In this document: piece by piece, positions 1 to 59,250 of the stretch
Layout: every line of letters starts with the position of its first letter
Numbering within the stretch: position 1 is the first letter of the stretch
Assembly: GCA_964428965.1 (NCBI GenBank)
Contig: CAYSAF010000004.1
Location: 1 to 59,749, forward strand
From: Candidatus Woesearchaeota archaeon
GTDB lineage: Archaea; Nanobdellota; Nanobdellia; SCGC-AAA011-G17; VGLX01
Direction: 5' to 3'
DNA length: 59,749 nucleotides
Translations under genes and position numbers: made by a program
The notes under the pieces: generated by a model
What the model saw: the letters and a program-made list of their open reading frames with translations, nothing else
Told to the model about the DNA's origin: nothing
The model's database searches: none

Positions 1-58
1 GTTTTGCAGCCTAGGCCTTAATGCCACCGTTCTATGAACGGTGGTTCTTTACAAATTT

Positions 59-3640: not shown

Positions 3641-4573
3641 TGCTGCATTTCTGTCTGCATTATCTTTGTGTCCGCATTTACATGTGAACCAGTTTTTTGT
3701 TCTTTTTCCGGTGCTGCCACAGGCAGAGCATGTTTTTGAGGTGTTCCATTCAGATATTTTTATTAGTGGGACTCCTTTTTCTTTTGTTTTGTATTCTAAA
3801 AATTGGGTTAGTTTGTAATAAGAGAAATTTGAGAGTTTTCTATTGAGTAGTCTGCCTTTAGTTTTGTTGATACCTTTTAACCTGCCTATTACAATGGCTG
3901 CTTTCTTTTTGTTTGCTTCGGTAATTATGTCTTTGGATATCTTATGTAGTAGTGTGTTTATTTTCCTTTTTTCTTTGTTTTTCATCTTTTGTATTTGTTT
4001 TAGTTTTTTATTTTTTCCGAGTTTTTTCCTTAGGTAGTAGTATTTTCCTCTTATTTGATTTAGTTCTTTTCCTATGAATTTTGTTTTTCTTGTTGAGAGT
4101 TCTATTGATGTTATGGGGTTTTTTAGGCCTGTATCTATGCCTATGATTTCTTTTGGTTTGTAGGGTTTAGGTTCGGGTATTTCTATGCAGAGGTATAGGT
4201 AGTATTTTGAATTTTTTCTTAGTAGGTATGAGTCTTTTATTGTGAATTTTTCTGGTAGGGGCTGATGGAATTTTAGTGGTAGCCACATTCCTCTTCCTTT
4301 TCTTTGGCTGTTTGGTATTTTGAGCCAGTGTTTTGTTATTTTTGTTTCTCTTTCCCTGAACCAGTCTTTTATTAGAACAGCCCAAAGTGGTAGGGAATAT
4401 TCCTTATATTTTATCTTCTTTTGTTTGAACTTCTTACTAGCTTTAAAACAGCTTAACAAGCCATGATCTATGCCAAAAATCATCCACCATTGATAATTAT
4501 TGTAGTCTGTATCAATCAGTCTCTTTTTAGATTTTGTCAGATTAATGATTGAAACTTTTACAGTCTTAATCAT
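3509..4573 (-). CDS. tnpB: TnpB RNA-guided endonuclease (IS200/IS605 family), no tnpA nearby
   Basis: RuvC-I GIDTG, IVIGRL region, ISEWNTSKTCSACG...CKCG zinc finger, NADRNAAFNI RuvC-III. Confidence 0.88.
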   Translation of the reverse strand: MIKTVKVSIINLTKSKKRLIDTDYNNYQWWMIFGIDHGLLSCFKASKKFKQKKIKYKEYSLPLWAVLIKDWFRERETKITKHWLKIPNSQRKGRGMWLPLKFHQPLPEKFTIKDSYLLRKNSKYYLYLCIEIPEPKPYKPKEIIGIDTGLKNPITSIELSTRKTKFIGKELNQIRGKYYYLRKKLGKNKKLKQIQKMKNKEKRKINTLLHKISKDIITEANKKKAAIVIGRLKGINKTKGRLLNRKLSNFSYYKLTQFLEYKTKEKGVPLIKISEWNTSKTCSACGSTGKRTKNWFTCKCGHKDNADRNAAFNIAKRGLSYMLRSGAQAYAQKPIIMNGQAHNSQKMQICNMHY

Positions 4574-9043: not shown

Positions 9044-9119
9044 TGGGGCTGGCAGGATTTGAACCTGCGACCACGTGCACCCCAAGCACGTATCATGTTC
9101 CAAGCTAGACTACAGCCCC
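9044..9119 (-). tRNA. tRNA-Pro(GGG), no intron, CCA not encoded
   Basis: GGGGCTG/CAGCCCC acceptor stem, CGTGC-TTGGGGT-GCACG anticodon arm, GCAGG-TTCAAAT-CCTGC T arm. Confidence 0.95.
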
Positions 9120-9173: not shown

Positions 9174-9698
9174 ATGATTTCAAAGCTTCTTGCTGCCCAG
9201 AAGAACGGTCTTAAGATTCCTGTTAAGAAGAAGGATGTTGTTATCTACCTTGGCGCTTCTCATGGCGTTACCGCTAAGCTCCTTGCCGATATGGTTGGTC
9301 GTCAGGGTTTCGTTTTCTGTCTTGGCGTCTCTCCAGGGACCATGATGCATCTTGTTCATGTTTGTGAGGAAGAGGAGAACATGGCCCCCCTTCTTTTTGA
9401 TCCGAACAAGCCTGAATTATACAAGAAACACGTTCCTAAGGTCGATGTTATCTACCAGGATGTAGCTGAGAAAAATCAGGTTGAGATTTTGAAAAAGAAT
9501 GCTGACGTGTTCCTTAAGGATTATGGTTATGCAATTCTTGTTTTGAAAACAAAAAGCGTTGATGTCATCCAGGATAAGGAGATTATTTTGAATCTTGTTC
9601 TTGATGAGTTGAAGAAGTTCCTTGAGGTTGTTGATTACGTTGATTTAAGCCCTTATCACAGGGAGCATTTTTTTATTGTTTGTCGTAAGAACGAATGA
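9174..9698 (+). CDS. flpA: Fibrillarin-like rRNA/tRNA 2'-O-methyltransferase (short form)
   Basis: SKLLAA, YLGASHGVT, IYQDVAEKNQ, LVLK...VD and PYHREH match the fibrillarin catalytic domain. Confidence 0.8.
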   Translation: MISKLLAAQKNGLKIPVKKKDVVIYLGASHGVTAKLLADMVGRQGFVFCLGVSPGTMMHLVHVCEEEENMAPLLFDPNKPELYKKHVPKVDVIYQDVAEKNQVEILKKNADVFLKDYGYAILVLKTKSVDVIQDKEIILNLVLDELKKFLEVVDYVDLSPYHREHFFIVCRKNE

Positions 9699-10379: not shown

Positions 10380-10991
10380 TTATGGTGGGTATACTCCACG
10401 TATTTTCTTTAACCTGCTCGGATACCCCATTCTGTGTAGCGCTCTTTTTTTTATAAAATTTATATACGACCTAGTTACCCCGAAATGCTCTGCAATCTGT
10501 TTTACTGTGAGTTCTTCACCGTCTATTCCGAACCTCATCCTTAAAATCTGTTCTTCCCTAGGGCTTAGGCTTTTTAGTATTTCGTCTACAACCTCTATGG
10601 TGGCTTTTTTCATGATTTCTTCCTCGGGTGAGGGATAGTATGGTATTTCTTCTCTTGGTGCTGGCTGTGAGAGGTAAATGAGATCTTCTAATGGCACTTG
10701 TCTTTCCTTGTAGTATCTTACTCTTGGTTTTATTATCTTAAGTTCTATCGGGAAAACTTCTTTCTTTTTTATTGGTACTCCATGGTCCTTGTAGAATTTG
10801 CAGATTTTTCTCTGGTCTCTTAGTTTTGGGTATAATTTCATGCCTTCGTACTTTATGTATTTCCAGTATCTTATTTCTGTGTCCTCTGCTACTTTCTTCG
10901 CGGTTAATTCTAATTGTTCCCTTGCTCCGACTAGCTTGGCGTTCTTCACCTTCATTTCCAGTCTTAGCGAAAATTTTCTTTCTTTTTCCAT
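10380..10991 (-). CDS. Protein with C-terminal sigma-70 region 4-like HTH
   Basis: LKSLSPREEQILRMRFGIDGEELTVKQIAEHFGVTRSYINFIKKRALHRM. Confidence 0.75.
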   Translation of the reverse strand: MEKERKFSLRLEMKVKNAKLVGAREQLELTAKKVAEDTEIRYWKYIKYEGMKLYPKLRDQRKICKFYKDHGVPIKKKEVFPIELKIIKPRVRYYKERQVPLEDLIYLSQPAPREEIPYYPSPEEEIMKKATIEVVDEILKSLSPREEQILRMRFGIDGEELTVKQIAEHFGVTRSYINFIKKRALHRMGYPSRLKKIRGVYPP

Positions 10992-25836: not shown

Positions 25837-25878
25837 TTTACCAAAAACTTTATATTGTGCTGTAATTTTTTATTTTTC

Positions 25879-27096
25879 ATGGATAGGGTTTTGGGTAAAG
25901 TTCTTGAAAAAATAAAGCCGACTAAGGAAGAGGAGTTGTTCGTCAAGAAGCTTGCTGATGATATAATCGGCAAGATTAGGGTTAAGAATGCTAAGGTCGT
26001 TCTAGGCGGCTCTGGTGCCAAGGGTACCTGGATGAAGGGAACTCATGACATCGATATTTATGTTAAGTTTGACTTTAAGAAGTACAGAGATAAAGACATC
26101 TCTAAGATCCTGGCCAAGGAGTTGTGGAAGAAGTTCTCAAGGGTTGTTTCTCTTCACGGTTCCCGTGATTATTTCAGGGTTTTCAAGGAGGAGTTTACTT
26201 TTGAGATCGTTCCGATTCTTGATATTAAGAAGGCTTCTGAGGCTGTTAACATTACAGACATAAGCCCTTTGCATACTTTGTGGCTCAGGAAGTATGCTAA
26301 GCTTACCGATGATATAAGGCTTGCTAAGGCTTTTTGTCGTGCGCAGTCTTGTTACGGTGCTGAGTCCTACATTCGAGGTTTTTCTGGTTATGTTTTGGAG
26401 ATTCTGGTTGTTAGGTACGGCTCTTTTGAGAGATTCGTAAAGGCTGTTGCTAACTGGAAGGATAAAGAATACATAGATGTTATGAAGCATGGTGTTGAGC
26501 TTAACAGGGCAAAAACCCAGTCCCCTCTTATTTTGATAGATCCTGTTCAGCCTGATAGGAATGCTGCAGCAGCCTTGAGCAGGGAGCAGTACGTTAAGCT
26601 TATTGCTGCTGCTAAGAAATTCTTGAAGAATCCTTCTGAGGAGTTTTTTGTCAGGAGAGAGTTGACCGTAGACGATTTGAGGGAGAAGGCTAAGGGCAAG
26701 ACACTGGTTCTTTTTGAGGTTGTCCCTCTTGCTGGTAAGGAAGACGTGGTCGGTGCTAAATTGCTTAAGGCTTTCACCTATATCAGGAGCTCATTCTTGA
26801 AGGAAGGTTTCACTGTTTACGATGCTTCATGGTCTTGGAATAAGAAGGCCTTGTTTTATTTCATAGTCAATTCTGGTTTGTTGCCTGAGTTTAAGGTTCA
26901 TATCGGACCTAAAGCCTCTCAGCAGAGGCACGCTTCTAGGTTTAGGGAGAAGAACAGGAGGTATGCTGTTTTTGAAGATAGGGGCAGGTTGTGTGCTAAG
27001 ATTCCCCGCAAGTTTCGTGACGCTTCTTCTTTTTCTGGGAATCTGGTTAAGGATAGTAATCTTAAGCAGTGGGTTAAGTCGTTGAGTTTATTTTAG
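25879..27096 (+). CDS. cca: Archaeal CCA-adding enzyme
   Basis: GSGAKGT...DIDIYV, GAESYIRGFSGY, LIDPVQPDRNAAAA. Confidence 0.93.
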   Translation: MDRVLGKVLEKIKPTKEEELFVKKLADDIIGKIRVKNAKVVLGGSGAKGTWMKGTHDIDIYVKFDFKKYRDKDISKILAKELWKKFSRVVSLHGSRDYFRVFKEEFTFEIVPILDIKKASEAVNITDISPLHTLWLRKYAKLTDDIRLAKAFCRAQSCYGAESYIRGFSGYVLEILVVRYGSFERFVKAVANWKDKEYIDVMKHGVELNRAKTQSPLILIDPVQPDRNAAAALSREQYVKLIAAAKKFLKNPSEEFFVRRELTVDDLREKAKGKTLVLFEVVPLAGKEDVVGAKLLKAFTYIRSSFLKEGFTVYDASWSWNKKALFYFIVNSGLLPEFKVHIGPKASQQRHASRFREKNRRYAVFEDRGRLCAKIPRKFRDASSFSGNLVKDSNLKQWVKSLSLF

Positions 27097-27633
27097 CGTT
27101 ATTACCTTGTCGCAGAACTGCCCTAACTTGTGTAGTAATTTTTCATCCGATTTCTCGTCTATTGCTAAGAGCACGCAGCTCATGTCGTGCATCCTTAGTT
27201 TTCCTGTTAGGAAGTGTGTGAATTTTATTACTGATTCTTGGTTGTTGTAGACAGTTAGCGTGTCCAAAGAGTCAAGTATCAGGAACTGGTGTACCTCATC
27301 TTTTATTATTGGTTCTAGTGCTATCCCTATTTCTGTGAGGTCTGCTGGGGAATCGACAAAGTAGCAGTTTTTTGCTATAACCTCTTTTTCTCTCAGGTAG
27401 TCTGTTATGCAGTCTACGAAGAAGAGGTTTCTGTCGTTTATGTTTTTTGATTTTAGTATTTTTGCCATGCTCTGGTATGGCCTGTTCACCGTTATGTAGC
27501 CACCTCCCTTGTACTTGTCTGTTAGTATGCTGAGAATTTCGATGCTTGTTTCCTGCATTTTTTCTGCTGGCACGATGACCAGTGCTATGAATTTTTCCGA
27601 CAAGCCTTTTAATTCTTCTTCAAGGTCTTTCAT
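27088..27633 (-). CDS. Inactive RecA/KaiC-like domain protein
   Basis: YITVNRP, FFVDC, LILDSL, FTHFL; no Walker A; paralog of 29038..29610. Confidence 0.65.
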   Translation of the reverse strand: MKDLEEELKGLSEKFIALVIVPAEKMQETSIEILSILTDKYKGGGYITVNRPYQSMAKILKSKNINDRNLFFVDCITDYLREKEVIAKNCYFVDSPADLTEIGIALEPIIKDEVHQFLILDSLDTLTVYNNQESVIKFTHFLTGKLRMHDMSCVLLAIDEKSDEKLLHKLGQFCDKVITLK

Positions 27634-28613
27634 GTGTTTTCAGGGCATTCCTGAGGATTTAAATCTTGCTTTTTGTCTTTCTTTTTGAAGAGGTGTTGGC
27701 TCATCAATGCAAGTGTTAGAATTGTTAGTACGGCCACTAATACCCCCATGTAAATTCCCTTTTTTGATTCCTTTCCGCATAGGTTTTTTGTGCAGATATT
27801 TTCCTTGCACTCATAGTCGTTGTTGCAGCTAACCTTATCTGCTTTTTGTTGTTTCATTCCCCCTTCTGTGCAGTAAACCTCTTCTGTTCTTTCTGTTATG
27901 TTGTAGCATTTTCCTTTGTAATCACAGCCGGCAGTTGCTTGATGGGTGCAGTTTCCTTCCTCGCACTTGTCTGTTGTGCAGGCATTTTTGTCGTCGCAGT
28001 CTGAGTTGTTTTGGCATTCCCCTTCGGGTTTTTCTGTTTCTGCAATTTTGCAGTCTTTGTCATTTTCATTTTTACAACCCTCTGGGCAGCAACCGTCATC
28101 ATTCTTGCATTCCGTAACATTTGTAGTTTCGCATTTCTTTTCTGAGCTGCACTTGTTTATGGTGCAGTTGTCATCATCCTCGCACTCTTTGTCTTCCTGG
28201 CACTCTGCTGTCCTGCATACGTTGCTTATGCACGTGCCTGTTGTACAGCCGCAGTCTGTGCAGCAGCTTTCGTTGCTTTCTGAAACGTTTGCGTTGCAAA
28301 TGTCGTCTCCGCATTTGATGTCTACGGTTATTTCCATGCTGATCTCTACAAACGTTTCGTCTATGTATGTGTAATTAGCTATTCTTAACTTCATCCCGTT
28401 GACTTCTTTTACATAATCTCCTAATCCTATCACGTCTTTTTTTCCGTCGACTTCTACCTTTACTGTTCCGTCATATGTTGCGTCCAGGATCGTTACCGTT
28501 TTTCCGTTTACTGTTTCTTTTGACCCTATGTTTAGTTTTTCTGCTGTTTTCGTCTCTGCGTATATGTATGAAGAAAGTAGAATGATAAGTACTGCTATGA
28601 GATATTTCCTCAT
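27630..28613 (-). CDS. Secreted Cys-rich surface protein with C-terminal membrane anchor
   Basis: Signal peptide, repeated C-x-D-x-C-D-D-x-x-x-C-T modules, C-terminal TM followed by a basic tail. Confidence 0.8.
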   Translation of the reverse strand: MRKYLIAVLIILLSSYIYAETKTAEKLNIGSKETVNGKTVTILDATYDGTVKVEVDGKKDVIGLGDYVKEVNGMKLRIANYTYIDETFVEISMEITVDIKCGDDICNANVSESNESCCTDCGCTTGTCISNVCRTAECQEDKECEDDDNCTINKCSSEKKCETTNVTECKNDDGCCPEGCKNENDKDCKIAETEKPEGECQNNSDCDDKNACTTDKCEEGNCTHQATAGCDYKGKCYNITERTEEVYCTEGGMKQQKADKVSCNNDYECKENICTKNLCGKESKKGIYMGVLVAVLTILTLALMSQHLFKKKDKKQDLNPQECPENT

Positions 28614-29041
28614 TTTTTCTTCTTTTTCATGGCTTTTTTTATTTCTGCTGATTCCTTTTCAAATCCGAATTCCTGTCCTATGCTCCATATCTTGTATGCT
28701 GCTGCTACGAAAGTTAGGTATGCTAACGTGAGTAGCGTGTATTCCAGGTAGATGAGTATTGTTCCAGTACTTATCCTAATGAAGAATCTTTCTGCTGTCA
28801 GAGCTATAGAGAAGGCCACTACAAATATGAGGCATATTATGAAGTATGTGGGATATTCCCTCAAGGACGATCCAGGTGATAGCGATTTTCTTGCCCTGTA
28901 TGACCATATTATGGCCATTATGCCAAATGTTAGTGACAGTATTCCTGCTATGAGGTCTGCTTGTTTGACTATCCACATTATAGTTATCAAACCCAGAGAT
29001 ATTGCTGTTAGGCCTATTAGGTATTTTATTCCCTGATTCAT
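28610..29041 (-). CDS. Membrane protein (4 TM)
   Basis: Hydrophobic segments; start trimmed to MNQGIK, overlapping the upstream stop. Confidence 0.7.
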   Translation of the reverse strand: MNQGIKYLIGLTAISLGLITIMWIVKQADLIAGILSLTFGIMAIIWSYRARKSLSPGSSLREYPTYFIICLIFVVAFSIALTAERFFIRISTGTILIYLEYTLLTLAYLTFVAAAYKIWSIGQEFGFEKESAEIKKAMKKKKK

Positions 29042-29610
29042 TTTTTCCCACCTGCCAAGTCTATTATCACGTCGCAGAACTGGCTTAGTTCTTCTATCAG
29101 CTCTTTGTCTGTTTTTTTCAAAGATACTATTATTCCTTTTACTTTCCACACTCTCATCTTTCCTGCTAAGAAGTGTATGAATCTCGCTACTGTTTCCACC
29201 CTGTTGTACATCAGTAGGGTGCTTAACGAGTCAAAGAATAGGAATCTTTCTTTTCCTGGAAGTGCTCTTACTGCTTGGTCCATGGCGATCGATATGTCAC
29301 TCAGATTCTCTGGGTTTCCTATGAACAGGCAGTTTTTTGTTTTTTCTGTTTTGCCACCCGCCGTTTTTGTTACCGCATCTATGAAGATTATGAGCTTTGT
29401 ATCTATCTTTGTTTTTTCAAATTCTTTTTTCATAAACTCGAAGGGCTTGTTCAGAGTTACGTAGACTCCCGGTATATTCTCATCTTTTGTTAAATGTTTT
29501 ACGAGAACGAGGTTTGTTTTTTGGTAGTTGCCGGCATCCACCGTTGCCAGTGCTATGTAATCTTTTAAGTCTTTCACCCCTTTGTCAAATTCTTCCTCTA
29601 TTTTTCCCAT
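29038..29610 (-). CDS. Inactive RecA/KaiC-like domain protein
   Basis: YVTLNKP, IFIDA, FFDSLSTL, FIHFL; no Walker A. Confidence 0.65.
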   Translation of the reverse strand: MGKIEEEFDKGVKDLKDYIALATVDAGNYQKTNLVLVKHLTKDENIPGVYVTLNKPFEFMKKEFEKTKIDTKLIIFIDAVTKTAGGKTEKTKNCLFIGNPENLSDISIAMDQAVRALPGKERFLFFDSLSTLLMYNRVETVARFIHFLAGKMRVWKVKGIIVSLKKTDKELIEELSQFCDVIIDLAGGKK

Positions 29611-29699
29611 AAACCTAAAATATGTTTTAAACTATATAAGTTTTTTGGTAAAGTTTTTATAGTAGTACTTTTTATTTAATACATTAGAGGTGGTTTTTG

Positions 29700-30416
29700 A
29701 TGGAAAGGATTAATCTCGGCATTCCCGGTATGGAAGAAGTACTTAAGACTAACATTCTTGCTGATACTTCTGTTCTCGTTACTGGCTGTCCTGGTGCGGG
29801 TAAGAGTATTTTTGCTTTGCAGTTCATTTATGAAGGTGCGAGGAATAACATTCCTGGTTTGTTAATAACCTCTGAGCGGAGCGCTCCCTCCCTGAGGATG
29901 AGTGCTTCCAGTTTGGGTTTTGATCTTGATGGTTTTGAGAAGAAGGGTCTTATTACCATTGTTGAGCAGTCTATCACTAATGGTAAGATGATTTCTTTAG
30001 AAGCCCCTCTAACTTTATTAAGAAAGAAAAAAATTAAGAGGGTTGCCCTTGATTCGCTCACCTTGTTCAAGTTTGTTTATCAGCACGGTATGGAGTTCAG
30101 GAAGGGGGTTATTAGCTTCTTGAGGCAGATGAAGGAGGCCGGTGTTACCCTCCTCGTTACCTCTGAGAGGGATATTACAGATATAGACACCTTTTTATAC
30201 ACGTCCGAGGATTACTTGTTTGACGGCATGATCATACTGACGAAGATTAGGAAGGGCTCTTCGTTTGAAAGAGTTGTTCACGTTGCTAAGATGCGCGGTC
30301 AGGATCACTCTATAGATATCTACCCATTTGTGATTGCTAAGGGCGGCATTAAGGTTATGACCAAGGAGCTTCCGTTCTCCTTGATAGAGCAAGACGTGAT
30401 GAAAGGCAAAAAATGA
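29700..30416 (+). CDS. KaiC/RAD55-like ATPase
   Basis: GCPGAGKS Walker A, ALDSL Walker B, KMRG. Confidence 0.88.
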   Translation: MERINLGIPGMEEVLKTNILADTSVLVTGCPGAGKSIFALQFIYEGARNNIPGLLITSERSAPSLRMSASSLGFDLDGFEKKGLITIVEQSITNGKMISLEAPLTLLRKKKIKRVALDSLTLFKFVYQHGMEFRKGVISFLRQMKEAGVTLLVTSERDITDIDTFLYTSEDYLFDGMIILTKIRKGSSFERVVHVAKMRGQDHSIDIYPFVIAKGGIKVMTKELPFSLIEQDVMKGKK

Positions 30417-31111
30417 CTCCGCCTGTTAAGAGAATAACTACTGGTATCGTTGGATTTGATGATTTGGTTCAGGGAGGTTTTAAGCAGGGCAGCATCAACC
30501 TTGTTTCCGGAGGCCCTGGTTCTGGTAAGACGATTTTTGGTATTCAGTTCCTTGTTGAGGGTTTGAAGAACGGCGAGCCTGGAATTTATGTCACTTTTGA
30601 GGAGAAGAAGGATAAGCTTTACGAGGATATGCTTGGCTTTGGCTGGGACCTGGAGAAGTATGAGAAGGAGGGCAAATTTGCTTTTCTTGAATACACCCCT
30701 GAGCAGGTTAAGAAGGTCCTGATTGAGGGTGGGGGCACAATAGACACGCTTGTTTCTGATATGAAGGCTAAGCGTATGGTTATTGACTCGATAACCTCTT
30801 TCACCCTGTTGTATAAGGACGAGCTCGTCCAGAAAGAGTCATCCCTTGCTTTGTTTGAGTTGATTAACAAGTGGGGTTGCACCGCTGTTCTCACATCTCA
30901 GGAGGAGACTCCTGATGGCTCCACAATTACCGCTGCTCTCGAGTTCGAGGTTGACAGCATAATTCTTCTTTATCATCTTAGGAGGAAGGGTTCAAGGGTT
31001 AGGGCTATCGAGATTCTTAAGATGAGGGGTACAAAGCATCCTGAGAAGACTTTTGGTTTGGAGATTACGAATAAGGGTGTCAGGGTTCTGGATAAGGTTT
31101 GTGAGATATAA
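30413..31111 (+). CDS. KaiC/RAD55-like ATPase
   Basis: GGPGSGKT, VIDSIT, LKMRGT. Confidence 0.9.
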   Translation: MTPPVKRITTGIVGFDDLVQGGFKQGSINLVSGGPGSGKTIFGIQFLVEGLKNGEPGIYVTFEEKKDKLYEDMLGFGWDLEKYEKEGKFAFLEYTPEQVKKVLIEGGGTIDTLVSDMKAKRMVIDSITSFTLLYKDELVQKESSLALFELINKWGCTAVLTSQEETPDGSTITAALEFEVDSIILLYHLRRKGSRVRAIEILKMRGTKHPEKTFGLEITNKGVRVLDKVCEI

Positions 31112-38898: not shown

Positions 38899-39750
38899 AT
38901 GATTGATAAAAAAAAGAGGGTGACAGTAGCTCCTAATCCTGTTAGAGCGTTCTCAAATAAGCCTGATAAGAAGGACTTCAAACCCTCCCATAAAGTGGGT
39001 GGTAAGCTTAAGAAGTTGTCTAAGTACTTTACTTTCTTTGCTTTGTTGTTGTTCCTTGTTTTCCTGATTTACCTTTTGGTTGTTAAGAGCGAGATGATTT
39101 CTTCCACCTGGGTTTACAGCGCTCTTGGCTTGATTGCCGGTCTGCTCTTCCTGGTTAATCTTTATTTTGTGAAGAAGCACTCTGATAAGGTTAAGGATTT
39201 CTTCTCTAAGTTTAAGCGTGTCAAGGTGGTTGAGGAGAAGAAGGTTGTCGGTGTTGTTGTTGATGAAACTAAGAAGGTTGGGAAAGAGAAGGTTAAGAGT
39301 AAGGTTAAGCCCAAGGTCGTGTTGTTCGTTACGTTTTTTGTTCTTGGTGTTGTTGCTCTTCTTATACTTAATTCTAGGGGGGTAATCTCTTTTTCCAGTC
39401 CTTATTTCCTGCTTAGCGTAGGTGCTCTGTTTCTCATCTCCCTGGTTGTTGTGTCTTTAAGGTTTTACAGGTATCACAAGTCTAAGATGGAGATCCAGAA
39501 GAGTGTTTCTAAGGAGAATATAAGCGTGATTAAGAAGAGCATAGTTGCTAAGGCAAGCAAGTATAAAACTGATTTGGATCGTTTGTATGAGCTAGTTAAT
39601 GAGAAGGGTAAGCTTACTTTGTCTGATGTTGCTAAAGGCTTTAACATTTCTATCGAGATGGCTGAGGAGTGGGCTAGGATTCTGGAAAGTCATGACCTGA
39701 TTACCCTTAACTATCCTCCTTTCGGTGAGGTGGAACTTTGCAAGAAGTGA
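38899..39750 (+). CDS. Membrane protein with C-terminal winged helix
   Basis: 4 TM segments; TDLDRLYELVNEKGKLTLSDVAKGF...EEWARILE. Confidence 0.72.
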   Translation: MIDKKKRVTVAPNPVRAFSNKPDKKDFKPSHKVGGKLKKLSKYFTFFALLLFLVFLIYLLVVKSEMISSTWVYSALGLIAGLLFLVNLYFVKKHSDKVKDFFSKFKRVKVVEEKKVVGVVVDETKKVGKEKVKSKVKPKVVLFVTFFVLGVVALLILNSRGVISFSSPYFLLSVGALFLISLVVVSLRFYRYHKSKMEIQKSVSKENISVIKKSIVAKASKYKTDLDRLYELVNEKGKLTLSDVAKGFNISIEMAEEWARILESHDLITLNYPPFGEVELCKK

Positions 39751-41243
39751 TTGAGGCTTATGAGGTTCAGTCTGAGTTGATTCAGACTAAGGTTAACATA
39801 GTTAGGAGTTCAAGCGGTAATTTGAGATACGAGTTGGTAATTCCGGAGTTGCTTCCCGCTACTAAGATTTTGCTCGAAGACGTAAGGGATAAATTAATCA
39901 CTGAGACTACTATTACAACTTCTGAGATTCTTGATCCTAAGGTTATTGATTCTTTGAAGCAGAGGTTCAGCATTAAGGCTGAGTCCTTGATTAAGAGTGT
40001 TGTTCCCAGGGTCGATGAGGAGGTTAAGTCTTACTTGATCAGTACTTTGCTTCACGAGATGCTTGGTCTTGGCTATGTTGAGTTTCTGTTGAACGATTTC
40101 AATCTTGAGGAGATCGTTTTAATCTCTTCTAAGGAGCCTGTTCGCGTTTATCATAAGAAGTACGGCTGGCTTGAAACCAACATCACTATTAAGTCTGAAG
40201 AACAGATTCAGAATTACTCTAGCATTATTGCTCGTCGTGTCGGTAGGCAGGTAACAACTCTCAATCCATTGCTTGACGCTCATCTGATTACTGGTGATCG
40301 TGCTAACGCTGTCCTATATCCTATATCGACGAAGGGTAACACGATTACGATTAGGAAGTTCGCTCGTGATCCTTGGACTGTTACCGATTTTATTAAGGAG
40401 AAGACTTGTCCTCCCAACGTTTTCGCATTAATCTGGCTTGCTATACAGTACGAGATGAACATCCTTATCAGCGGCGGCACTGCTTCTGGTAAGACTTCTA
40501 TGCTTAACGTTCTCATGCCCTTTATCCCTCCAAACCAGCGTATCCTGAGTATTGAGGACACTCGTGAGATTCAGCTTGCTGAGCATCTCTATTGGTGTCC
40601 TCTGATCACTAGGCAGCCGAACCCTGAGGGCAAGGGGGAGGTTACTATGCTTGACCTGCTCGTTAACGCTTTGAGGATGAGGCCTGACAGGATTATTCTC
40701 GGTGAGATGAGGAGGAGGGATCAGGCAGAGGTTTTGTTTGAGGCCATGCACACAGGTCACTCTGTCTATGCTACCGTGCACGCAGATACCATTAACGATA
40801 CTATTAAGAGGCTTACCAACCCTCCTATCGAGGTTCCTCCTAATCTCTTAAGTGCTGTTAACCTTAACGTGGTTATGTTTAGGGATAGGCGTCGCGGTAT
40901 TAGGCGTACCTTCCAGATTGGTGAGTATTTGCCGGTTGAGGAGGAGGGTGGAACCTCAGTCAAGCCTAACGTTCTTTACAGGTGGAAGCCTGAGAAGGAC
41001 GAGGTTGTTGCTCACGCTGATCCTGTTCGTGTGTTTGAGGACTTGAGTAGGCATACTGGTATGACGATGAGAGAGATAAATCAAGACATAGCTTCTAAGA
41101 AGGGGATTCTTGAGTGGATGGTTAAGCATAACCACAGGAGCATTTTTGAGGTTGGTCATATCATGAATGCTTATTACAAGAATAATGAGGTTTTGATGAA
41201 GATAGTTGATAAGGATGGTAAAGCTGATGATCTGCTTAAGTAA
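39738..41243 (+). CDS. Type II/IV secretion (TadA/ArlI-like) assembly ATPase, TTG start
   Basis: GGTASGKT, SIEDTRE, LRMRPDRIILGE, TGH...TVHA. Confidence 0.95.
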   Translation: MQEVIEAYEVQSELIQTKVNIVRSSSGNLRYELVIPELLPATKILLEDVRDKLITETTITTSEILDPKVIDSLKQRFSIKAESLIKSVVPRVDEEVKSYLISTLLHEMLGLGYVEFLLNDFNLEEIVLISSKEPVRVYHKKYGWLETNITIKSEEQIQNYSSIIARRVGRQVTTLNPLLDAHLITGDRANAVLYPISTKGNTITIRKFARDPWTVTDFIKEKTCPPNVFALIWLAIQYEMNILISGGTASGKTSMLNVLMPFIPPNQRILSIEDTREIQLAEHLYWCPLITRQPNPEGKGEVTMLDLLVNALRMRPDRIILGEMRRRDQAEVLFEAMHTGHSVYATVHADTINDTIKRLTNPPIEVPPNLLSAVNLNVVMFRDRRRGIRRTFQIGEYLPVEEEGGTSVKPNVLYRWKPEKDEVVAHADPVRVFEDLSRHTGMTMREINQDIASKKGILEWMVKHNHRSIFEVGHIMNAYYKNNEVLMKIVDKDGKADDLLK

Positions 41244-41248
41244 TTGCA

Positions 41249-42136
41249 ATGTTAAAACTGCCCTATAACCTTTTGCCGGAAAAAATCATCTTGAGGGTTT
41301 CAAGATTGTTCTTGGGTTTTTCTTACTCGCTTAAGCCCTTTTTTCCTTTTACGGGTTTGAGTTTGCGTCAGGCCGGCTTGAGGATTGACGTTAGGGAGTA
41401 TCTTTCCATGTGCCTAGCTTCTTCTCTTATTTTTTTTGTTTTTTCCTCAGCCTTTATTTCCACATTGGTTTTTTTGGCAGGTCTTGAGACACCCATAATT
41501 TTTGGTATTGTTTCTGGCACGATTTTTTCTTTTTTTGTTTTCGTTCAGCAGATTTCCTACCCGAAAATTCTTTCTCGTAAGAAGATCAGGAGTTTGGAGC
41601 AGAATCTCCTTCCTGCTTTGCAGAACCTGCTTATCCAGCTGAACTCCGGCGTCCCTACTTTCAACATTCTCGTTAACATATCTTCTGGTGATTATGGTGA
41701 GGTTTCCAAGGAATTCGCTAAGGCTGTGAAGGAGATTAACGCTGGCAGACCTCAAGTTGAGGTTCTAGAGGAGCTCGCTTCTAACAACCCCTCAAATCTT
41801 TTCAGGAGGACAATCTGGCAGGTTGTTAACGGTATGAAGGCAGGCAGTGACATGGCTGCTGTTATCAGCGATATTATTAACAGGTTGGCTGAACAGCAGC
41901 TTATTCAGATTCAGAATTACGGCGGCCAGTTAAGTCCGCTTGCTATGTTTTACATGCTTGTTGCTGTTATCGTACCATCTCTCAGTGTTACTTTTATAAT
42001 CATTTTGTCTTCTTTCATCTCTCTCGGTGAGTACGTGACTAAGCTTATGTTTTGGGGGCTTTTCGTTTTAGTGGTTTTCTTGCAAATTATGTTTATGGGT
42101 GTGATAAAGTCGAGGAGGCCTAATTTGATAACATGA
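41249..42136 (+). CDS. T2SS F-domain membrane platform protein (TadB/C, ArlJ-like)
   Basis: LPALQNLLIQLNSG, YGEVSKEF; directly follows the ATPase. Confidence 0.85.
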   Translation: MLKLPYNLLPEKIILRVSRLFLGFSYSLKPFFPFTGLSLRQAGLRIDVREYLSMCLASSLIFFVFSSAFISTLVFLAGLETPIIFGIVSGTIFSFFVFVQQISYPKILSRKKIRSLEQNLLPALQNLLIQLNSGVPTFNILVNISSGDYGEVSKEFAKAVKEINAGRPQVEVLEELASNNPSNLFRRTIWQVVNGMKAGSDMAAVISDIINRLAEQQLIQIQNYGGQLSPLAMFYMLVAVIVPSLSVTFIIILSSFISLGEYVTKLMFWGLFVLVVFLQIMFMGVIKSRRPNLIT

Positions 42137-43119
42137 CTCTGTACAGGATTATTTCGATGTTGTACCCTAAGAAGGTTATGTCTAATTATATGGAGCTTCT
42201 GGATTACGCTAACCTCAGCATAGATCCTTATCGGTTTACTGGTTTTGTTCTTTCTTTCGGTTTCGTTTTCGGTTGGATGGCTGCTTTTGCTCTCGGTGCT
42301 ATGTTTAAGTTTAACCTGTGGATTACTTTTGCAATAGCTTTCATCTCTTTTGAGGTGACTTTTTACATCTGGCTTCTTCTGAGTGTGGATGCTAAGGCTA
42401 GGGTTGTAGAGTCTGCTTTGCCTGACGCTTTGCAGCTTATGTCCAGTAATCTCAGGGCAGGTTTGACTCCTGAGAAGGCTCTTCTCTTGTCCGCTCGCCC
42501 AGAGTTCGGCCCTCTTACCGATGAGATTACTCGAGTGGGCAAGGATGTGATGATCGGTAAGGAAATTTCTGTTGCTATGATGGACATGACTAAAAGGGTG
42601 AGGTCTGATAAGCTTAGGAAGACTATGGAGTTGATAGTTTCTGGTTTGAGGGCTGGCGGTGAGTTGGCTGCTTTGATCGAGCAAACTGCTAGAAATCTCC
42701 GCGATCAGGAGTTTGTTGATCAGAAGATTAGGTCTAACGTGCGTATGTATGTTATTTTTATTTTTTCTGCTGTTACCTTTGGCGCCCCCCTTCTTTACGG
42801 TTTGAGTTCTTTCCTCGTTGACGTTATGAAGGAGGTTATTTCCAAGGTTGAGATTCCCCGTGAGAGCATAAGCACCATGAGCATGCCCCTGACCATTTCT
42901 AAGGTTTCGATTAGTTCAGAGTTCATTATGACCTATGTCATAACCTCTCTGGTTATGACTTCTGTTATGGGCTCACTGATATTGGGGCTTATCTCCAAGG
43001 GTGAGGAGAAGCAGGGATTCAAGCTGATTCCCATACTGATTGCCGTCAGCGTTTTGATATTCTTTGCTGTCCGTTTCATAGTGTCTACTCTTCTCGGTGG
43101 CCTGCTTACTAATTTATGA
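42133..43119 (+). CDS. T2SS F-domain membrane platform protein (TadB/C, ArlJ-like)
   Basis: LPDALQLMSSNLRAG, FGPLTDEI. Confidence 0.87.
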   Translation: MTLYRIISMLYPKKVMSNYMELLDYANLSIDPYRFTGFVLSFGFVFGWMAAFALGAMFKFNLWITFAIAFISFEVTFYIWLLLSVDAKARVVESALPDALQLMSSNLRAGLTPEKALLLSARPEFGPLTDEITRVGKDVMIGKEISVAMMDMTKRVRSDKLRKTMELIVSGLRAGGELAALIEQTARNLRDQEFVDQKIRSNVRMYVIFIFSAVTFGAPLLYGLSSFLVDVMKEVISKVEIPRESISTMSMPLTISKVSISSEFIMTYVITSLVMTSVMGSLILGLISKGEEKQGFKLIPILIAVSVLIFFAVRFIVSTLLGGLLTNL

Positions 43120-43160
43120 TTCAACAAAGTTTATAAACAACTTTTTGTTAAAGAAAGATT

Positions 43161-43988
43161 ATGCAGGTTTCGAAAAAAGGTGGTTTTGTCAGGATTGTGG
43201 ATTCTTCTAAGACAGATTCTCATAACGTTTCTCTGAAAGACGGTAAGTTTCAGATTAAGAGGGCCAGGGATTCTTCTGATAAGCCGCTTAATTTTAGTGA
43301 TGATAGGGTTAAGACCGGTATCGAGGGCTTGGACGAGGTTATGGGAGGCGGTTTTGAGCAAAGCTCTGTGAACATCGTTTGTGGCGGCCCAGGCACTGGT
43401 AAGAGTATCTTTGCTTTGCAGTTCTTGCGTAACGGCGCCCTCGACTTTAACGAGCCTGGCATTTACATAACTTTTGAGGAGTCTAAGGGGAAGATTTACA
43501 AGCACACGAAGGAGTTCGGTTGGAATTTGAAGGCGTTGGAAGATGAGGACAAGTTGGCTGTTATTGAGTACACACCTGAGCACGTTAAGAAGCTTCTTAC
43601 CGAGGGCGGTGGCGAGGTTGATTTGGCTGTTGAGAAGATAGGGGCTAAGCGGATAGTTATAGATTCTTTGACTGCTTTTTCTTTACTCTTCAAGGATCAG
43701 TTGGCTCGCATGGAGGCTTTCCTTGATTTGTTCAAGCTGATTCAGCGTTGGGGTTGCACTGCTTTGCTGGTTTCCGAGGACGAGCAGGACGTTGAGAGTC
43801 ATCATCCCTCAGGCGTTGAGTTTGAGGTTGACGGTATAGTCCTTCTCTATAACATAAGGAAGGGTGATATTAGGGAGCGTGCCCTTGAGGTTTTGAAATT
43901 GCGTGGCACAGAGCATTCCAACAAGATTTTCCCGATGAAAATCACCGATAACGGGGTTGTTGTTTTCCCTGAGGAGACTGTTTTCTGA
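43161..43988 (+). CDS. KaiC/RAD55-like (ArlH-like) ATPase
   Basis: GGPGTGKS, VIDSLT, LKLRGT. Confidence 0.9.
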   Translation: MQVSKKGGFVRIVDSSKTDSHNVSLKDGKFQIKRARDSSDKPLNFSDDRVKTGIEGLDEVMGGGFEQSSVNIVCGGPGTGKSIFALQFLRNGALDFNEPGIYITFEESKGKIYKHTKEFGWNLKALEDEDKLAVIEYTPEHVKKLLTEGGGEVDLAVEKIGAKRIVIDSLTAFSLLFKDQLARMEAFLDLFKLIQRWGCTALLVSEDEQDVESHHPSGVEFEVDGIVLLYNIRKGDIRERALEVLKLRGTEHSNKIFPMKITDNGVVVFPEETVF

Positions 43989-54911: not shown

Positions 54912-55994
54912 ATGTGCTACTGCACTATGTTTCCTGCCTCTATTTTCCCATCAGTAGAGGATGTGTTGATGAGAAATTATGCTCACTTATTAGGCGCATC
55001 TTCGTTCAGGGGGTTAAAGCGGATAGTTAGGGATAACATGGAAAGTTTGACAGATATGGAAAAACGCATTTTAAGCATGAGGTTTTCTAAGTTGAGAGCT
55101 AAGGAAATAAACTCTAAGCTTAACATCAGTCTGCAGAGGGTGTATTATAGGGAGAGGCGTGCTATTTCCAAAGTTCTTGCTGATTTAAAAAGTAAGCAAC
55201 TTCAACATATGGATAAAGAGCGGATACTTAACATGTTTCTTTCAGAATTCGCTAAATATCTTCCATCATCGCCTAATGTTAATTATTACACTCGCGTGAG
55301 GCATTCTTTCTCCAGGATTAAAGATATGAAAATAGGTGGGCTAATAGAGATGGGCCCTTCAATTATGAACAAAGTTGGAATAGGTGCTCGTTCCTATGAT
55401 CGTCTAAGAAAGTTTTTATTGAATTATGATATCAAATTAGAAAAGATTCCATCTTTGTACGATACCAATATTAAGAAGTACATCAATGTCTTATCCACTT
55501 CCTCTTTGGATGATACAAAAATTACCATTTCTAGGTATGGAGATTTCCTTGAACCTTTAGAGCTTAAGGTCTTGAAGATGAGGCTTTTTGGTAACTCGCT
55601 TAGAAGTATTGGTATGAAAGTTGATCTAACTCGTGAACGCATTAGAAAGATAGAGTCTTATGCCCTTGAAAAGCTGAGGTTTTATTCTGATCGTAGTTTA
55701 GAAAATTACACAAAAGATGATGTTTTGAGTATGAAAGTTTCAGAATTTGTTAATCTGATCCCTCCTGCTCGTGATTATAAGGCTGTTAGGATAAAGAATG
55801 CCCTTTTGACCTGTTTCAGCGAGCATAACCTTGCATATCTTGTTGAAAATCCAGATGAACTTGCTAAGTGCCCTGCTTTTCATGCAAAGTGTTATATGTC
55901 TTTCAGGAATATACTAAGAAATTATGGTATATCGCTTGCTAATACTGATTATTTTAAACCCCATAAAATTCTTTTACCTAATAATAAGGTTTAA
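54912..55994 (+). CDS. Protein with duplicated sigma-70 region 4-like and RNAP alpha-CTD-like modules
   Basis: LTDMEKRILSMR...; LEPLELKVLKMR...LTRERIRKIESYALEKL; GIGARSYDRL...; VRIKNAL. Confidence 0.6.
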   Translation: MCYCTMFPASIFPSVEDVLMRNYAHLLGASSFRGLKRIVRDNMESLTDMEKRILSMRFSKLRAKEINSKLNISLQRVYYRERRAISKVLADLKSKQLQHMDKERILNMFLSEFAKYLPSSPNVNYYTRVRHSFSRIKDMKIGGLIEMGPSIMNKVGIGARSYDRLRKFLLNYDIKLEKIPSLYDTNIKKYINVLSTSSLDDTKITISRYGDFLEPLELKVLKMRLFGNSLRSIGMKVDLTRERIRKIESYALEKLRFYSDRSLENYTKDDVLSMKVSEFVNLIPPARDYKAVRIKNALLTCFSEHNLAYLVENPDELAKCPAFHAKCYMSFRNILRNYGISLANTDYFKPHKILLPNNKV

Positions 55995-56020: not shown

Positions 56021-57034
56021 ATGATAGTTATCGACGGTAGCACAGGTGAAGGGGGAGGTCAGATGTTGAGGACCGCCCTAGGTCTTTCTGCTCTGACAGG
56101 TAAACCTTTCAGCATGATTAACATTAGGAAAGGAAGGGATAATCCTGGCATTAAGGAGCAGCACCTTCAGGCTGTTAATGCTGTTGCCAAGCTTTGTGAT
56201 GCCAAGGTTGAGGGTGCTGAGATTAACTCCATGAACTTGGAGTTCATTCCGAATGCGATTCGTTCTGGTAACATTAATGTTGCTATCTCTACAGCTGGTT
56301 CAGTTGGCCTTGTTCTTCAATCATTGCTTATACCTGCTGTTAAGACTGATTTGAGGATTAGGATTAAAGGGGGTGCTACCTGTGGCAAGTGGGCCATGCC
56401 CATTGACCATTTCAAGTTTGTTCTCTCTCCCCTCCTAAAAAGGCTCGGTTACGAGACCGGTGTTGTTGTTAAAAAGGAAGGTTTTTATCCGAAAGGCGGT
56501 GCTCTTGTTGAGGTTTTTTCTGGCAAGGTTAAGCAAATCCTCCCTATCGATGTTATGGAGAAGGGAAAAATTATTTCCATCAATGGAAAAAGTATTGCTT
56601 CTGAGCAGTTAAGGAATGCCAGGGTTGCAGAAAGGCAAGCAAATTCTGCTAAGAAACTTCTCTTTGATCATTTCAAGACTGATGCTAACATAAAGGTTGA
56701 GTATGTTAATACATTAAATGCTGGTTCTGGGATTCAGCTTTGGATTGAGACAGAGAACTCCGTCATCGGTGGCAATTCTCTAGGTGAGGTGGGTAAGAAG
56801 GCTGAGATTGTTGGTGAGGAGGCAGCAAATAATCTTGTGGAGGATTTTGAGCATGGTTGTGTTGATCGTTTTACTTCTGATCAGCTTCTTCCTTACATGG
56901 CCCTTGCTGGTTCAGGTCGTTTCCTTGCTTCTAAGATTACTGACCATGTTAGGACGAATGCCTTGGTTATTGAGCAGTTTCTCGATGTGAAATTCAATTT
57001 AAAGGATAAGTTGATTGAATGTAAAAGCGTTTAA
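56021..57034 (+). CDS. rtcA: RNA 3'-terminal phosphate cyclase
   Basis: IDGSTGEGGGQMLRTA, GFYPKGG, DQLLPY, TDHVRTN. Confidence 0.95.
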   Translation: MIVIDGSTGEGGGQMLRTALGLSALTGKPFSMINIRKGRDNPGIKEQHLQAVNAVAKLCDAKVEGAEINSMNLEFIPNAIRSGNINVAISTAGSVGLVLQSLLIPAVKTDLRIRIKGGATCGKWAMPIDHFKFVLSPLLKRLGYETGVVVKKEGFYPKGGALVEVFSGKVKQILPIDVMEKGKIISINGKSIASEQLRNARVAERQANSAKKLLFDHFKTDANIKVEYVNTLNAGSGIQLWIETENSVIGGNSLGEVGKKAEIVGEEAANNLVEDFEHGCVDRFTSDQLLPYMALAGSGRFLASKITDHVRTNALVIEQFLDVKFNLKDKLIECKSV

Positions 57035-57073
57035 CAAAAGCTTTAAAAACATGCCTTTTTCTATTAGTTACAT

Positions 57074-57272
57074 AGCGGGGTGGAGCAGCTAGGAGTGCTC
57101 GTCGAATCAAGTCTTTTAGATTGATGCGAAAGGCCCATATAGCCTAGCAAATTGGCTCTGGACACCCGGAATTAGGAAACTAATGGGCAAAGGTCGATGG
57201 AGGGGGTTCAGAAATCAAAGAATTCCCGTCGAATTCAAAAGGGAAAACCTGAATGTCCATCCCCCGCTACCA
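57074..57272 (+). tRNA. Initiator tRNA-Met(CAT) with five introns: exons 57074-57104, 57132-57139, 57164-57169, 57191-57200, 57234-57239, 57256-57272
   Basis: Joined exons give 78 nt: AGCGGGG-TG-GAGC-AGCTAGGAGT-GCTC-G-TCGGG-CCCATAA-CCCGG-AGGTC-GATGG-TTCAAAT-CCATC-CCCCGCT-A-CCA. It has A1-U72 and three G-C pairs 29-31/39-41. Each removed segment forms a BHB-type fold. Confidence 0.9.
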
Positions 57273-57379
57273 CTTTATAATAGTAGCATTATTACTACTT
57301 TAAACATATATTTTTTAGCGAATAGACATCCGTCATGTCCACGGGCAGTATATATAAATAATAGAGAAATCTTCAAGTA

Positions 57380-58549
57380 GTGCCACATACAAAATTTTCA
57401 GATGGTTATATTTACCTCAATAAAGAGGAGGTAACTAATTATTTTACAATAGAAGGTAATCGACTATCACTAAAAGATTCGATAGCTAAACCCATTAAAA
57501 TAAACTTACCATTCAAAATTGATGAGAATGTCGCAAAAATTTCTGCAATGCTTTTAGATGGTTCATTAAACAAAAATCTTAGTGGTGTTATGTTTTCTCA
57601 AAAGAAAGACAAAAATAAGGTAACAGAATTTAGTAAAATAGTAAAAGAATACTTTGGTTTAGTGGGAAGATTTTCAATTCGTAGCGATACCGGTACTTCT
57701 ATTGTTACAATAAGTAGTAAAACATTGAGTACTTTTCTTCACAAATCTCTTGGTTTATCAAAATCAGACGAGCCAACACGAATTCCCTTGTGGGTTTGGA
57801 ACTCACCTAAATCTGTAGTAATAGAATACTTGAGGTATGCTTATGCTATGGAAGGTTCAATTAACCATCCTTCAAAGGCAGCTGAAATAAGATTTCATAG
57901 TGTTTCCTTGCCTTATATAAAAGATTTAAAGAAACTCCTATTCGAAAAATTCAAAATAGATTCTAAAATCCAGAGGTATTACATCAAGGATTATGGATGG
58001 AAATATTTTTTATATTTTTGTAGTAGAAAAAATATTATCAAGTTCAAAGATATAGGCTTTGCGTTGAAGTCTCACCAAGACAGATTAGAAAAAGTTAGCT
58101 CTTCGTTTAAAAATAAATCTTGGGAGATTATGTTGGTTAATATTTTAGGTTTGTATAAAAATATATTTACTTTAAATGATATGAACAAAAAATTTTCATA
58201 CCTTTGTAAAAGGGCAGTTCATTGGAGGTTAACGAATCTAGTAAATATGGGTTATTTGAGAAAAGAAAAGGATGGGTATTCCATCACAGGAGCAGGATAC
58301 TTACTGGCTTTATGCTTACTAAACAGAGTAAGGACAACTAGATTAAGAACAAATCCAAGAAAGAATGAAGATGCAGTTCTAAACTTCTTAAATTCTAATG
58401 GTAAGGGCTATAGAAATGAGATAGCAAGAAAAGTAGGTGTACACCCTGCAACCGTCCGTGATACTCTTTTAAGACTGGTTAAACAGCAGAAAATACAGTT
58501 AATTGTCTCTGACAAATTCCAAAGAAAGTTCTATTCTATCAAATCATAA
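57380..58549 (+). CDS. Free-standing double-motif LAGLIDADG-type protein with C-terminal winged-helix domains (GTG start)
   Basis: ISAMLLDGSL and LRYAYAMEGSI motifs; C-terminal YRNEIARKVGVHPATVRDTLLRLVKQ HTH; AT-rich. Confidence 0.75.
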   Translation: MPHTKFSDGYIYLNKEEVTNYFTIEGNRLSLKDSIAKPIKINLPFKIDENVAKISAMLLDGSLNKNLSGVMFSQKKDKNKVTEFSKIVKEYFGLVGRFSIRSDTGTSIVTISSKTLSTFLHKSLGLSKSDEPTRIPLWVWNSPKSVVIEYLRYAYAMEGSINHPSKAAEIRFHSVSLPYIKDLKKLLFEKFKIDSKIQRYYIKDYGWKYFLYFCSRKNIIKFKDIGFALKSHQDRLEKVSSSFKNKSWEIMLVNILGLYKNIFTLNDMNKKFSYLCKRAVHWRLTNLVNMGYLRKEKDGYSITGAGYLLALCLLNRVRTTRLRTNPRKNEDAVLNFLNSNGKGYRNEIARKVGVHPATVRDTLLRLVKQQKIQLIVSDKFQRKFYSIKS

Positions 58550-58581: not shown

Positions 58582-59250
58582 ATGGTATTGACTCTTGGGA
58601 TTGACGAAAGCGGGCGTGGACCAGTAATCGGTAGCATGTTCATAGTTGGAGCTATGTTTGAAGAAGAAAAATTGAAAGAATTAACAAGGATTGGGGTTAA
58701 GGATTCTAAACTTTTATTACATCATAAAAGGGTGGAATTAGCAGAGAAAATTAAGGCGTTGGCAAAGAGGATTAAAGTGGTTAAAGTTGAGCCTGCAGAA
58801 ATAGACCTGGCTGTTGATGGCAAAGACGGGCTTAATCTTAACTGGCTCGAGGCTGTGAAACAGGCTGAAATCATAAATGATCTAAGGCCGGATAGAGTTG
58901 TTATAGACTGTCCAAGTCCTAATATTAAAGCATATACTGAATTTTTGATGGGTTACATAAAAGATGAAATAAGGGATAATATTGAGTTGATTGTTGATCA
59001 CAAAGCTGATAAGAATTATGTGGAATGTAGTAGCGCCTCTATTATTGCTAAGGTGGAACGTAATAAAGAAATAGAAGAGTTGGAGAAAAAGTACGGAGAG
59101 ATTGGTCCCGGCTACCAGTCAAATCCCATAACCCAAGAATTTATCAAGGAGAATTGGGAGAAGCACCCTGAAATTTTCCGTAAGTCTTGGATTACCTGGC
59201 AGAATCACAGGAAGGCTAAGGGCCAGAAAAAGATTGATGATTTTGATTAA
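58582..59250 (+). CDS. rnhB: Ribonuclease HII
   Basis: GIDESGRGPVIG, GVKDSK, VVIDC, HKAD...SASIIAK. Confidence 0.95.
   Translation: MVLTLGIDESGRGPVIGSMFIVGAMFEEEKLKELTRIGVKDSKLLLHHKRVELAEKIKALAKRIKVVKVEPAEIDLAVDGKDGLNLNWLEAVKQAEIINDLRPDRVVIDCPSPNIKAYTEFLMGYIKDEIRDNIELIVDHKADKNYVECSSASIIAKVERNKEIEELEKKYGEIGPGYQSNPITQEFIKENWEKHPEIFRKSWITWQNHRKAKGQKKIDDFD

Follow-up and report, generated by a model that had tools for sequence, protein, structure and literature searches.

How can a tRNA be matured from a gene that consists mostly of introns, when the signals for removing those introns share nucleotides? The question is raised by the locus at positions 57074–57272 of the window, by which we mean the whole 59.7-kb (59,749-nt) stretch of DNA that was analysed. 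Judged by its sequence and by that of its relatives, the locus is almost certainly a gene for archaeal initiator tRNA-Met(CAU), read from the forward strand and interrupted by five bulge-helix-bulge (BHB) introns (I1 to I5); this confidence extends to both the gene structure and the splice sites. The host lineage is DPANN (Nanoarchaeota/Woesearchaeota-like) and the gene is chromosomal. The placement comes from homologues of the RtcA protein encoded upstream, which are annotated as Nanoarchaeota, Nanoarchaeia or Woesearchaeota. Taken as a whole, the locus is best explained, we think fairly probably, as a five-intron gene with competing splice motifs, at least two rounds of cutting and joining, and a partial order of intron removal.

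The spliced product is an initiator tRNA

The gene was read within positions 56800–57600. It starts with AGCGGGGTGGAGCAG at 57074 and ends with CCCCGCTACCA at 57272. Introns account for 121 of its 199 nt (Table 1). A first-pass annotation of the same DNA had placed exons of only 6–10 nt between the introns; its partition was reproduced exactly, with internal exons of 8, 6, 10 and 6 nt. When joined, the six exons make a 78-nt RNA that folds into a perfect cloverleaf (−32 kcal/mol) and is called tRNA-Met(cat) by ARAGORN. All of the initiator marks are present in the spliced sequence and in the ARAGORN drawing. Hence, the pair A1:U72, the G29–G31:C39–C41 pairs and the anticodon CAU identify the product as an archaeal initiator tRNA.

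The unspliced gene was missed by ARAGORN, also with its intron option, and by Rfam at the gathering threshold and at E≤1. Together, these searches found three other tRNA genes in the window (Pro, Gly and Ser), all without introns. No second initiator tRNA gene was found within the 59.7 kb. Because ARAGORN and Rfam miss the gene entirely, DPANN genomes of this group would appear to be without initiator tRNA; a concern about incomplete tRNA sets in DPANN has been raised explicitly (PMC5829648). The same 271 nt, including the locus, are identical in three independent metagenome assemblies, which rules out an assembly error.

The anticodon loop (57134–57140; CCCAUAA when spliced) has C33 in place of the near-universal U33. 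C33 is common to the whole close clade, including alleles that have no intron in the anticodon arm (L004, L011 and L016), and U33 is found in the more distant orthologues L012, L015, L017, L019 and L024. The 3′ CCA is encoded here and is not encoded in most orthologues. The window also encodes a CCA-adding enzyme of class I.

Table 1. Features of the initiator tRNA locus and of other genes in the window discussed in the text. H, central helix; h, outer helix, between exons; h′, helix within the intron.
Feature	Position in window	Strand	tRNA position	Length	Structure or remark
Putative promoter block AACAAAAGCTTTAAAAAC	57033..57050	+			Same block 5′ of every close orthologue
TATA-like box TTTAAAAA	Centre ~28 nt upstream of tRNA position 1	+			Read from sequence; gene starts 24 nt downstream of box
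Exon 1	57074..57104	+	1–29		Acceptor 5′ strand, D-arm, U27–G29; identical or nearly so in all orthologues
I1	57105..57131	+	29/30	27 nt	HBh′; H 4 pairs (U24–U27 with GCGA); h′ 5 bp (AUCAA:UUGAU)
Exon 2	57132..57139	+	G30–A37	8 nt	GGCCCAUA; holds anticodon CAU and C33
I2	57140..57163	+	37/38 (canonical)	24 nt	Relaxed hBH/BHL; H 2/4 pairs; h′ 4 bp (AGCC:GGCU); anticodon stem as h, 5 bp after I1 removal
Exon 3	57164..57169	+	A38–G43	6 nt	ACCCGG
I3	57170..57190	+	43/44	21 nt	HBh′; H 3/4 pairs (C39–C41 with GGG, A38 opposite C); h′ 5 bp (AUUAG:CUAAU)
Exon 4	57191..57200	+	A44–G53	10 nt	Variable loop and T-stem 5′ strand
I4	57201..57233	+	53/54	33 nt	HBh′; H 4 pairs (C48–U51 with GUCG); h′ 8 bp
Exon 5	57234..57239	+	U54–A59	6 nt	UUCAAA, most of T-loop
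I5	57240..57255	+	59/60	16 nt	H 4 pairs (U54–A57 with UGAA); h′ 2 bp (GG:CC); T-stem as h
Exon 6	57256..57272	+	U60–A73 and CCA		Encoded CCA at 57270–57272
RtcA (RNA 3′-phosphate cyclase)	56021–57034	+			Ends 40 nt before tRNA gene
LAGLIDADG_3 ORF	57380–58549	+		389 aa	C-terminal winged-helix match; directly 3′ of tRNA gene
RNase HII	58582–59250	+
Class I CCA-adding enzyme	25855–27096
tRNA-Pro	9044–9119	−
Fibrillarin ORF	9174–9698	+			Adjoins tRNA-Pro

Orthologous loci confirm every junction

Orthologues were collected from contigs encoding RtcA homologues, where the same promoter block is found, and more were added by two scans with DNA patterns. The intron content of these loci differs. I4 alone is present in L004, L011 and L016; I1 and I2 in L005 and L006; I1, I2, I3 and I5 in L008 and L025; and I1, I2, I4 and I5 in L033. 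The more distant loci L012, L015, L017, L019 and L024 have no introns. Orthologues next to an RtcA gene whose product is 79–88% identical contain one, two, four or five of the introns described here. Alleles at the locus differ by the precise presence or absence of introns of 15–36 nt. Thus, I1 and I2 are both precisely absent in L004, L011 and L016; I3 in L005, L006, L033 and L004; I4 in L005, L006, L008 and L025; and I5 in L004, L005, L006 and L011. The intron-less junctions match the predicted sequence exactly, including the unusual C33 and G43. For all five introns, then, one or more orthologues that cleanly lack the intron confirm the junction. It is this comparison that establishes the gene structure and the splice sites.

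Exons are perfectly conserved while the introns vary. The variation preserves pairing in three of the introns. In I1, the h′ helix still pairs in L008, L025 and L006 although its sequence has changed. In I4, H covaries with the T-stem (CGAU:GUCG here versus CGGU:GCCG where the T-stem has G50), and h′ occurs as three unrelated sequences, in the window, L004 and L016, that all pair in the same register. Compensatory changes are found in both helices of I5: H is UUCA:UGAA here and UCCA:UGGA in L025, and h′ is GG:CC here, GA:UC in L008 and GAG:CUC in L025. For I2 and I3 the orthologues offered no informative helix variation, and these introns are supported by register and by precise absence. The T-loop of L025 reads UCCAAAU, with C55 for the universal U55 and a matching change in H of I5; this may be genuine variation or a mistake in the 1.8-kb contig.

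Introns occur at other places in further DPANN initiator tRNA genes. Loci L021/L026, L030 and L032 have a ~17–20-nt intron at 4/5, in the acceptor stem (AGCG|...|GGG), and L022 has two introns, at 37/38 and in the variable region. Initiator tRNA genes appear to be a hot spot for introns throughout DPANN. Long inserts in the T-loop of L013 and L018 were considered as nested introns, which would have taken the number beyond five. This was rejected; in a restricted search each insert is a single 91-nt intron at 59/60.

All five introns fit the archaeal BHB type

A BHB motif was defined as a 3-nt bulge, a 4-bp helix and a second 3-nt bulge, with each cut after the second bulge base; the relaxed forms HBh′ and hBH/BHL were accepted. 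The register was coded for an intron of n nucleotides following exon position p. In this code, H pairs exon p−5 to p−2 with intron n−5 to n−2, and the bulges are p−1, p and i1 on one side and i(n−1), i(n) and p+1 on the other. The h′ helix lies within the intron and the h helix between exons. All five introns fit the archaeal, EndA-spliced BHB type in standard or relaxed form, and cleavage at these sites, leaving a 2′,3′-cyclic phosphate and a 5′-OH for joining by RtcB, is predicted on that ground. Shuffled introns matched the observed values in 7 (I1), 97 (I2), 0 (I3), 0 (I4) and 22 (I5) of 20000 trials each, giving per-intron p values of 5e-5 to 5e-3.

Two junctions required closer inspection. 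A 1-nt ambiguity at I3 was settled at 43/44 by reasoning from the BHB register rule. Placing I3 at 42/43 gives a product that disagrees with the intron-less orthologues. Placing it at 44/45 gives the right product and, by the same rule, no central helix. For I2, a search for a better register found none. Because the orthologues fix this junction, I2 is a relaxed hBH/BHL motif. Self-splicing introns of group I or II were also considered. Such introns have a catalytic core of hundreds of nucleotides; the introns here are 16–33 nt long and match no Rfam intron family even at E≤1. No copies of the five intron sequences were found elsewhere in the window.

Splice motifs compete for the same nucleotides

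The first-pass annotation had stated that U54 is shared by I4 and I5, and that all five motifs cannot form at once. Both statements are borne out. U54 has to be unpaired in I4, as the third base of its 3′ bulge, but paired in I5, where U54:A is the first pair of the central helix; the two motifs therefore collide. In a joint-constraint test, this was the only hard conflict between motif cores; the cores of I1 to I4 could formally coexist. A similar claim, that I2 and I3 share A38, holds only in part. The I2 3′-bulge base does occupy position 1 of the I3 helix. It faces C there, and the overlap is positional only.

Further conflicts, which had been missed, involve I2. With the anticodon stem as its outer helix, I2 collides with I1 at G30, which is the I1 3′-bulge base, and with I3 at C39–C41, which form the I3 central helix (C39 and C40 were flagged in the joint-constraint test). 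Since the I2 central helix has only two pairs, I2 probably needs the anticodon stem in this way.

The motifs also draw on the stems of the cloverleaf. The I1 central helix takes U24 and C25 from the D-stem. The central helix and 5′ bulge of I4 use G49–G53 of the T-stem, which is the outer helix of I5. Thus, the I5 outer helix goes from 0 to 5 bp once I4 has been removed. With I1, I3 and I4 all gone, the motifs of I2 and I5 can coexist, each with a full outer helix. The exon between I4 and I5 (exon 5) has no Watson–Crick partner in another exon of the cloverleaf.

Folding energies point to a partial order of removal

All 31 intron-containing states were folded with and without each motif enforced, using nearest-neighbour energies that ignore the enzyme, though it can stabilise bulges. 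Within the complete precursor, forming the core of I1, I3, I4 or I5 costs 2.4–3.8 kcal/mol, and forming that of I2 costs 7.7 kcal/mol. The cost of I2 is 7.7–10.9 kcal/mol with I1 present and 4.0–5.8 kcal/mol without it. I3 costs 2.4–4.3 kcal/mol with I2 present, and 0.5–1.7 kcal/mol without I2. On these costs, I3 would be accessible early as well. The cost of I1 rises from 3.8 to 6.9 kcal/mol as the other introns go. Since its motif becomes harder to form as they leave, I1 would best be cut early. Between I4 and I5 the energy differences are small (2.0–3.9 kcal/mol), so either could go first, although at any instant the model makes the two mutually exclusive.

In this thermodynamic model, three features indicate stepwise removal: the clash at U54, the greater cost of I2 while I1 is present, and an outer helix for I5 that appears only after I4 has gone. 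It had been proposed that the introns are removed sequentially with refolding between steps. The premise stands, in that motifs exclude one another. No single obligatory order follows from it.

The pathway that we infer would begin with a single precursor of ~200 nt, transcribed from a conserved TATA-type promoter and matured by the archaeal splicing endonuclease (EndA) and, presumably, an RtcB-type ligase. In each of the four non-canonical introns, a 4-nt segment that complements the exon immediately 5′ of the 5′ splice site would give the intron its own HBh′ motif. To form, these motifs would have to displace cloverleaf helices, with I1 competing with the D-stem, I3 with the anticodon stem and I4 with the T-stem. 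With just two central pairs, the canonical I2 would depend on an intact anticodon stem. I5 would attain a full hBHBh′ motif only after loss of I4, when the T-stem becomes contiguous. Because motifs compete for the same nucleotides, at least two rounds of cutting and joining would be needed, and the folding model makes such obligatory rounds likely. The first wave would comprise I1, I3 and I4, in any order, and the second I2 and I5. To this specific partial order, as distinct from one fixed line, we give an even chance. Ligation between rounds would keep the 6-nt T-loop exon from release. If both I4 and I5 were cut before ligation, exon 5 would probably be lost; the clash at U54 would prevent that.

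The same gene might instead be spliced in no meaningful order, with a broad-specificity EndA recognising each HBh′ or hBH core independently, one motif at a time. The similar, modest costs of the I1, I3, I4 and I5 cores in the full precursor are as such a scheme would have them, and U54 is the single hard conflict between cores. Some relatives have I4 and lack I5 and others the reverse, so that neither intron needs the other. The compatible cores of I1 to I4 might even allow a very permissive EndA to cut several at once. We nevertheless consider unordered splicing rather unlikely. It sits poorly with I2, where H has only two pairs and the motif is 4–5 kcal/mol harder to form with I1 present, and with I5, where h′ has only 2 bp and the outer helix has to await removal of I4. 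In addition, ordered removal has been shown by experiment even for motifs that are independent (PMC3728597).

Intron sets vary between close relatives

If removal in steps is the better reading, does it serve a purpose? The first-pass annotation had suggested a checkpoint on the supply of initiator tRNA. Such a device, selected to throttle supply through multi-step splicing, would exploit the general fact that initiator tRNA limits translation initiation, and the processing steps here are many. However, the intron sets of close relatives are {4}, {1,2}, {1,2,3,5}, {1,2,4,5} and {1–5}, and distant relatives have none; turnover this free is not what a conserved control device would show. The three other tRNA genes in the window, moreover, are intron-free. 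We regard a checkpoint as very improbable. Since the intron set varies freely between close relatives, even where RtcA is 79–88% identical, labile and probably neutral or selfish insertions fit better than a conserved regulator.

A decaying pseudogene, or an artefact of assembly, with junk insertions in place of introns is scarcely credible: standard tRNA finders do not call the locus, but it is identical in three independent assemblies, its exons are perfectly conserved while its introns vary, its promoter block is conserved, all ten splice sites are in exact BHB register with compensatory changes, and the window has no other initiator tRNA gene.

A bolder extension of the stepwise model is possible but doubtful. 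On that view, the BHB mini-introns of this DPANN lineage may be actively moving, with the initiator tRNA locus as a preferred sink; the five-intron allele would record gain still in progress, through reverse splicing or through recombination between strains. An obligatory cycle of cutting, ligation and refolding, imposed by the mutually exclusive motifs, would then protect the 6-nt exons. If so, the allelic series {none}, {4}, {1,2}, {1,2,3,5}, {1,2,4,5} and {1–5} would make both mobility and splicing order directly testable.

Splicing enzymes and neighbouring genes

The first-pass annotation had called for an EndA of relaxed specificity, as in heteromeric enzymes. A heteromeric enzyme is not required; epsilon2 EndA, and probably alpha4 EndA with an L3 loop, handle such introns in DPANN (PMC3239211, PMC5829648). 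The epsilon2 enzyme cuts relaxed motifs (PMC3239211). The L3-loop alpha4 form has been reported from several lineages of DPANN, alongside disrupted tRNA genes (PMC5829648). A Pfam scan of 45 ORFs of the 59.7-kb window, which is a fraction of the genome, gave no tRNA_int_endo match; the CCA-adding enzyme, RtcA and RNase HII were among the matches. A tblastn search with an approximate Methanocaldococcus jannaschii EndA query found no match in the window or in the orthologous loci. No RtcB gene was found in the 59.7-kb window.

The upstream position of RtcA suggested a functional link. This was set aside as a matter of gene order; adjacency of RtcA and the tRNA gene is confined to the close clade and holds for one-intron alleles too. 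Adjacency of the tRNA gene and RNase HII extends to distant DPANN loci. The LAGLIDADG_3 ORF is the only mobile-type gene nearby. It is absent in L006/L007, where RNase HII directly follows the tRNA gene, and in L008 and L033 a different LAGLIDADG_3 ORF is found on the opposite strand.

Other features of the window are recorded here for completeness. The fibrillarin ORF matches only positions 54–225 of the 227 in the profile; the ORF seems to lack its N-terminal quarter, or else that part is encoded elsewhere. Elsewhere (3509–4573 (−); 10380–10991 (−); 54912–55994 (+); 27088–31111; 38899–43988) are a TnpB/Cas12f-like ORF, two ORFs with Sigma-70 region 4 domains (unusual for an archaeon), several KaiC-like ATPases and a pilus-type T2SSE/T2SSF cluster.

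Comparison with known multi-intron tRNA genes

Multiple-intron tRNA genes of the Thermoproteales were reportedly the subject of work by Sugahara et al. in 2007/2008. In these genes (Pyrobaculum, Thermofilum and Caldivirga), as here, crowding forces one intron out before the next motif can form (PMC4033280, PMC8450103). More generally, closely spaced archaeal tRNA introns are removed iteratively, one leaving before the next BHB can form, and tRNAscan-SE 2.0 iterates for this reason (PMC8450103). Sequential splicing through crowded or overlapping tRNA introns is therefore a known principle (PMC8450103, PMC3728597).

What appears new is the intron count. The tRNAscan-SE 2.0 paper gives up to three introns for archaeal tRNA genes (PMC8450103), and a 2014 review states a maximum of three per gene (PMC4033280). 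There are five here and four in relatives. The literature searched yielded no report of tRNA genes with four or five introns, which is not proof that none exists. The Thermoproteales, moreover, are Crenarchaeota, whereas the present gene is from DPANN, encodes an initiator tRNA and shares its window with three intron-free tRNA genes.

The closest structural parallel comes from within DPANN. Pre-tRNA-Pro(GGG) of ARMAN-2 (Micrarchaeota) carries its introns at the two adjacent T-loop positions of I4 and I5, 53/54 and 59/60, with the same 6-nt micro-exon (54–59) between them (PMC3239211, Fig. 1C). The ARMAN-2 gene has only these two introns, described as strict hBHBh′ motifs, and its enzyme is the epsilon2 EndA (PMC3239211). 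An experimental parallel is the nuclear tRNA-Ile(UAU) of Cyanidioschyzon merolae, which has three BHB introns. Intermediates detected by RT-PCR show that these are removed in order, with the intron at 37/38 last (PMC3728597, PMC9602550); folding predicts the same for I2. C. merolae is a eukaryote, its motifs fold independently, and the order is kinetic or energetic. Conversely, some motifs here physically exclude one another. The C. merolae study also mentions nested archaeal introns (PMC3728597). Variation in intron number has a precedent in a Caldiarchaeum subterraneum population, where closely related genomes differ at the tRNA-Thr(GGU) locus and, as here, point to rapid gain or loss (PMC3293823). 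The change in C. subterraneum is tied to a 1.8-kb recombinase element and to gene splitting (PMC3293823), whereas here short introns are precisely present or absent.

Set beside these systems, the gene is an extreme case of a multi-intron pre-tRNA. Its natural allele series, at one syntenic locus, is material for asking how EndA selects between motifs that compete, whether ends have to be joined after one cleavage before the next can follow, and how fast tRNA introns are gained and lost.
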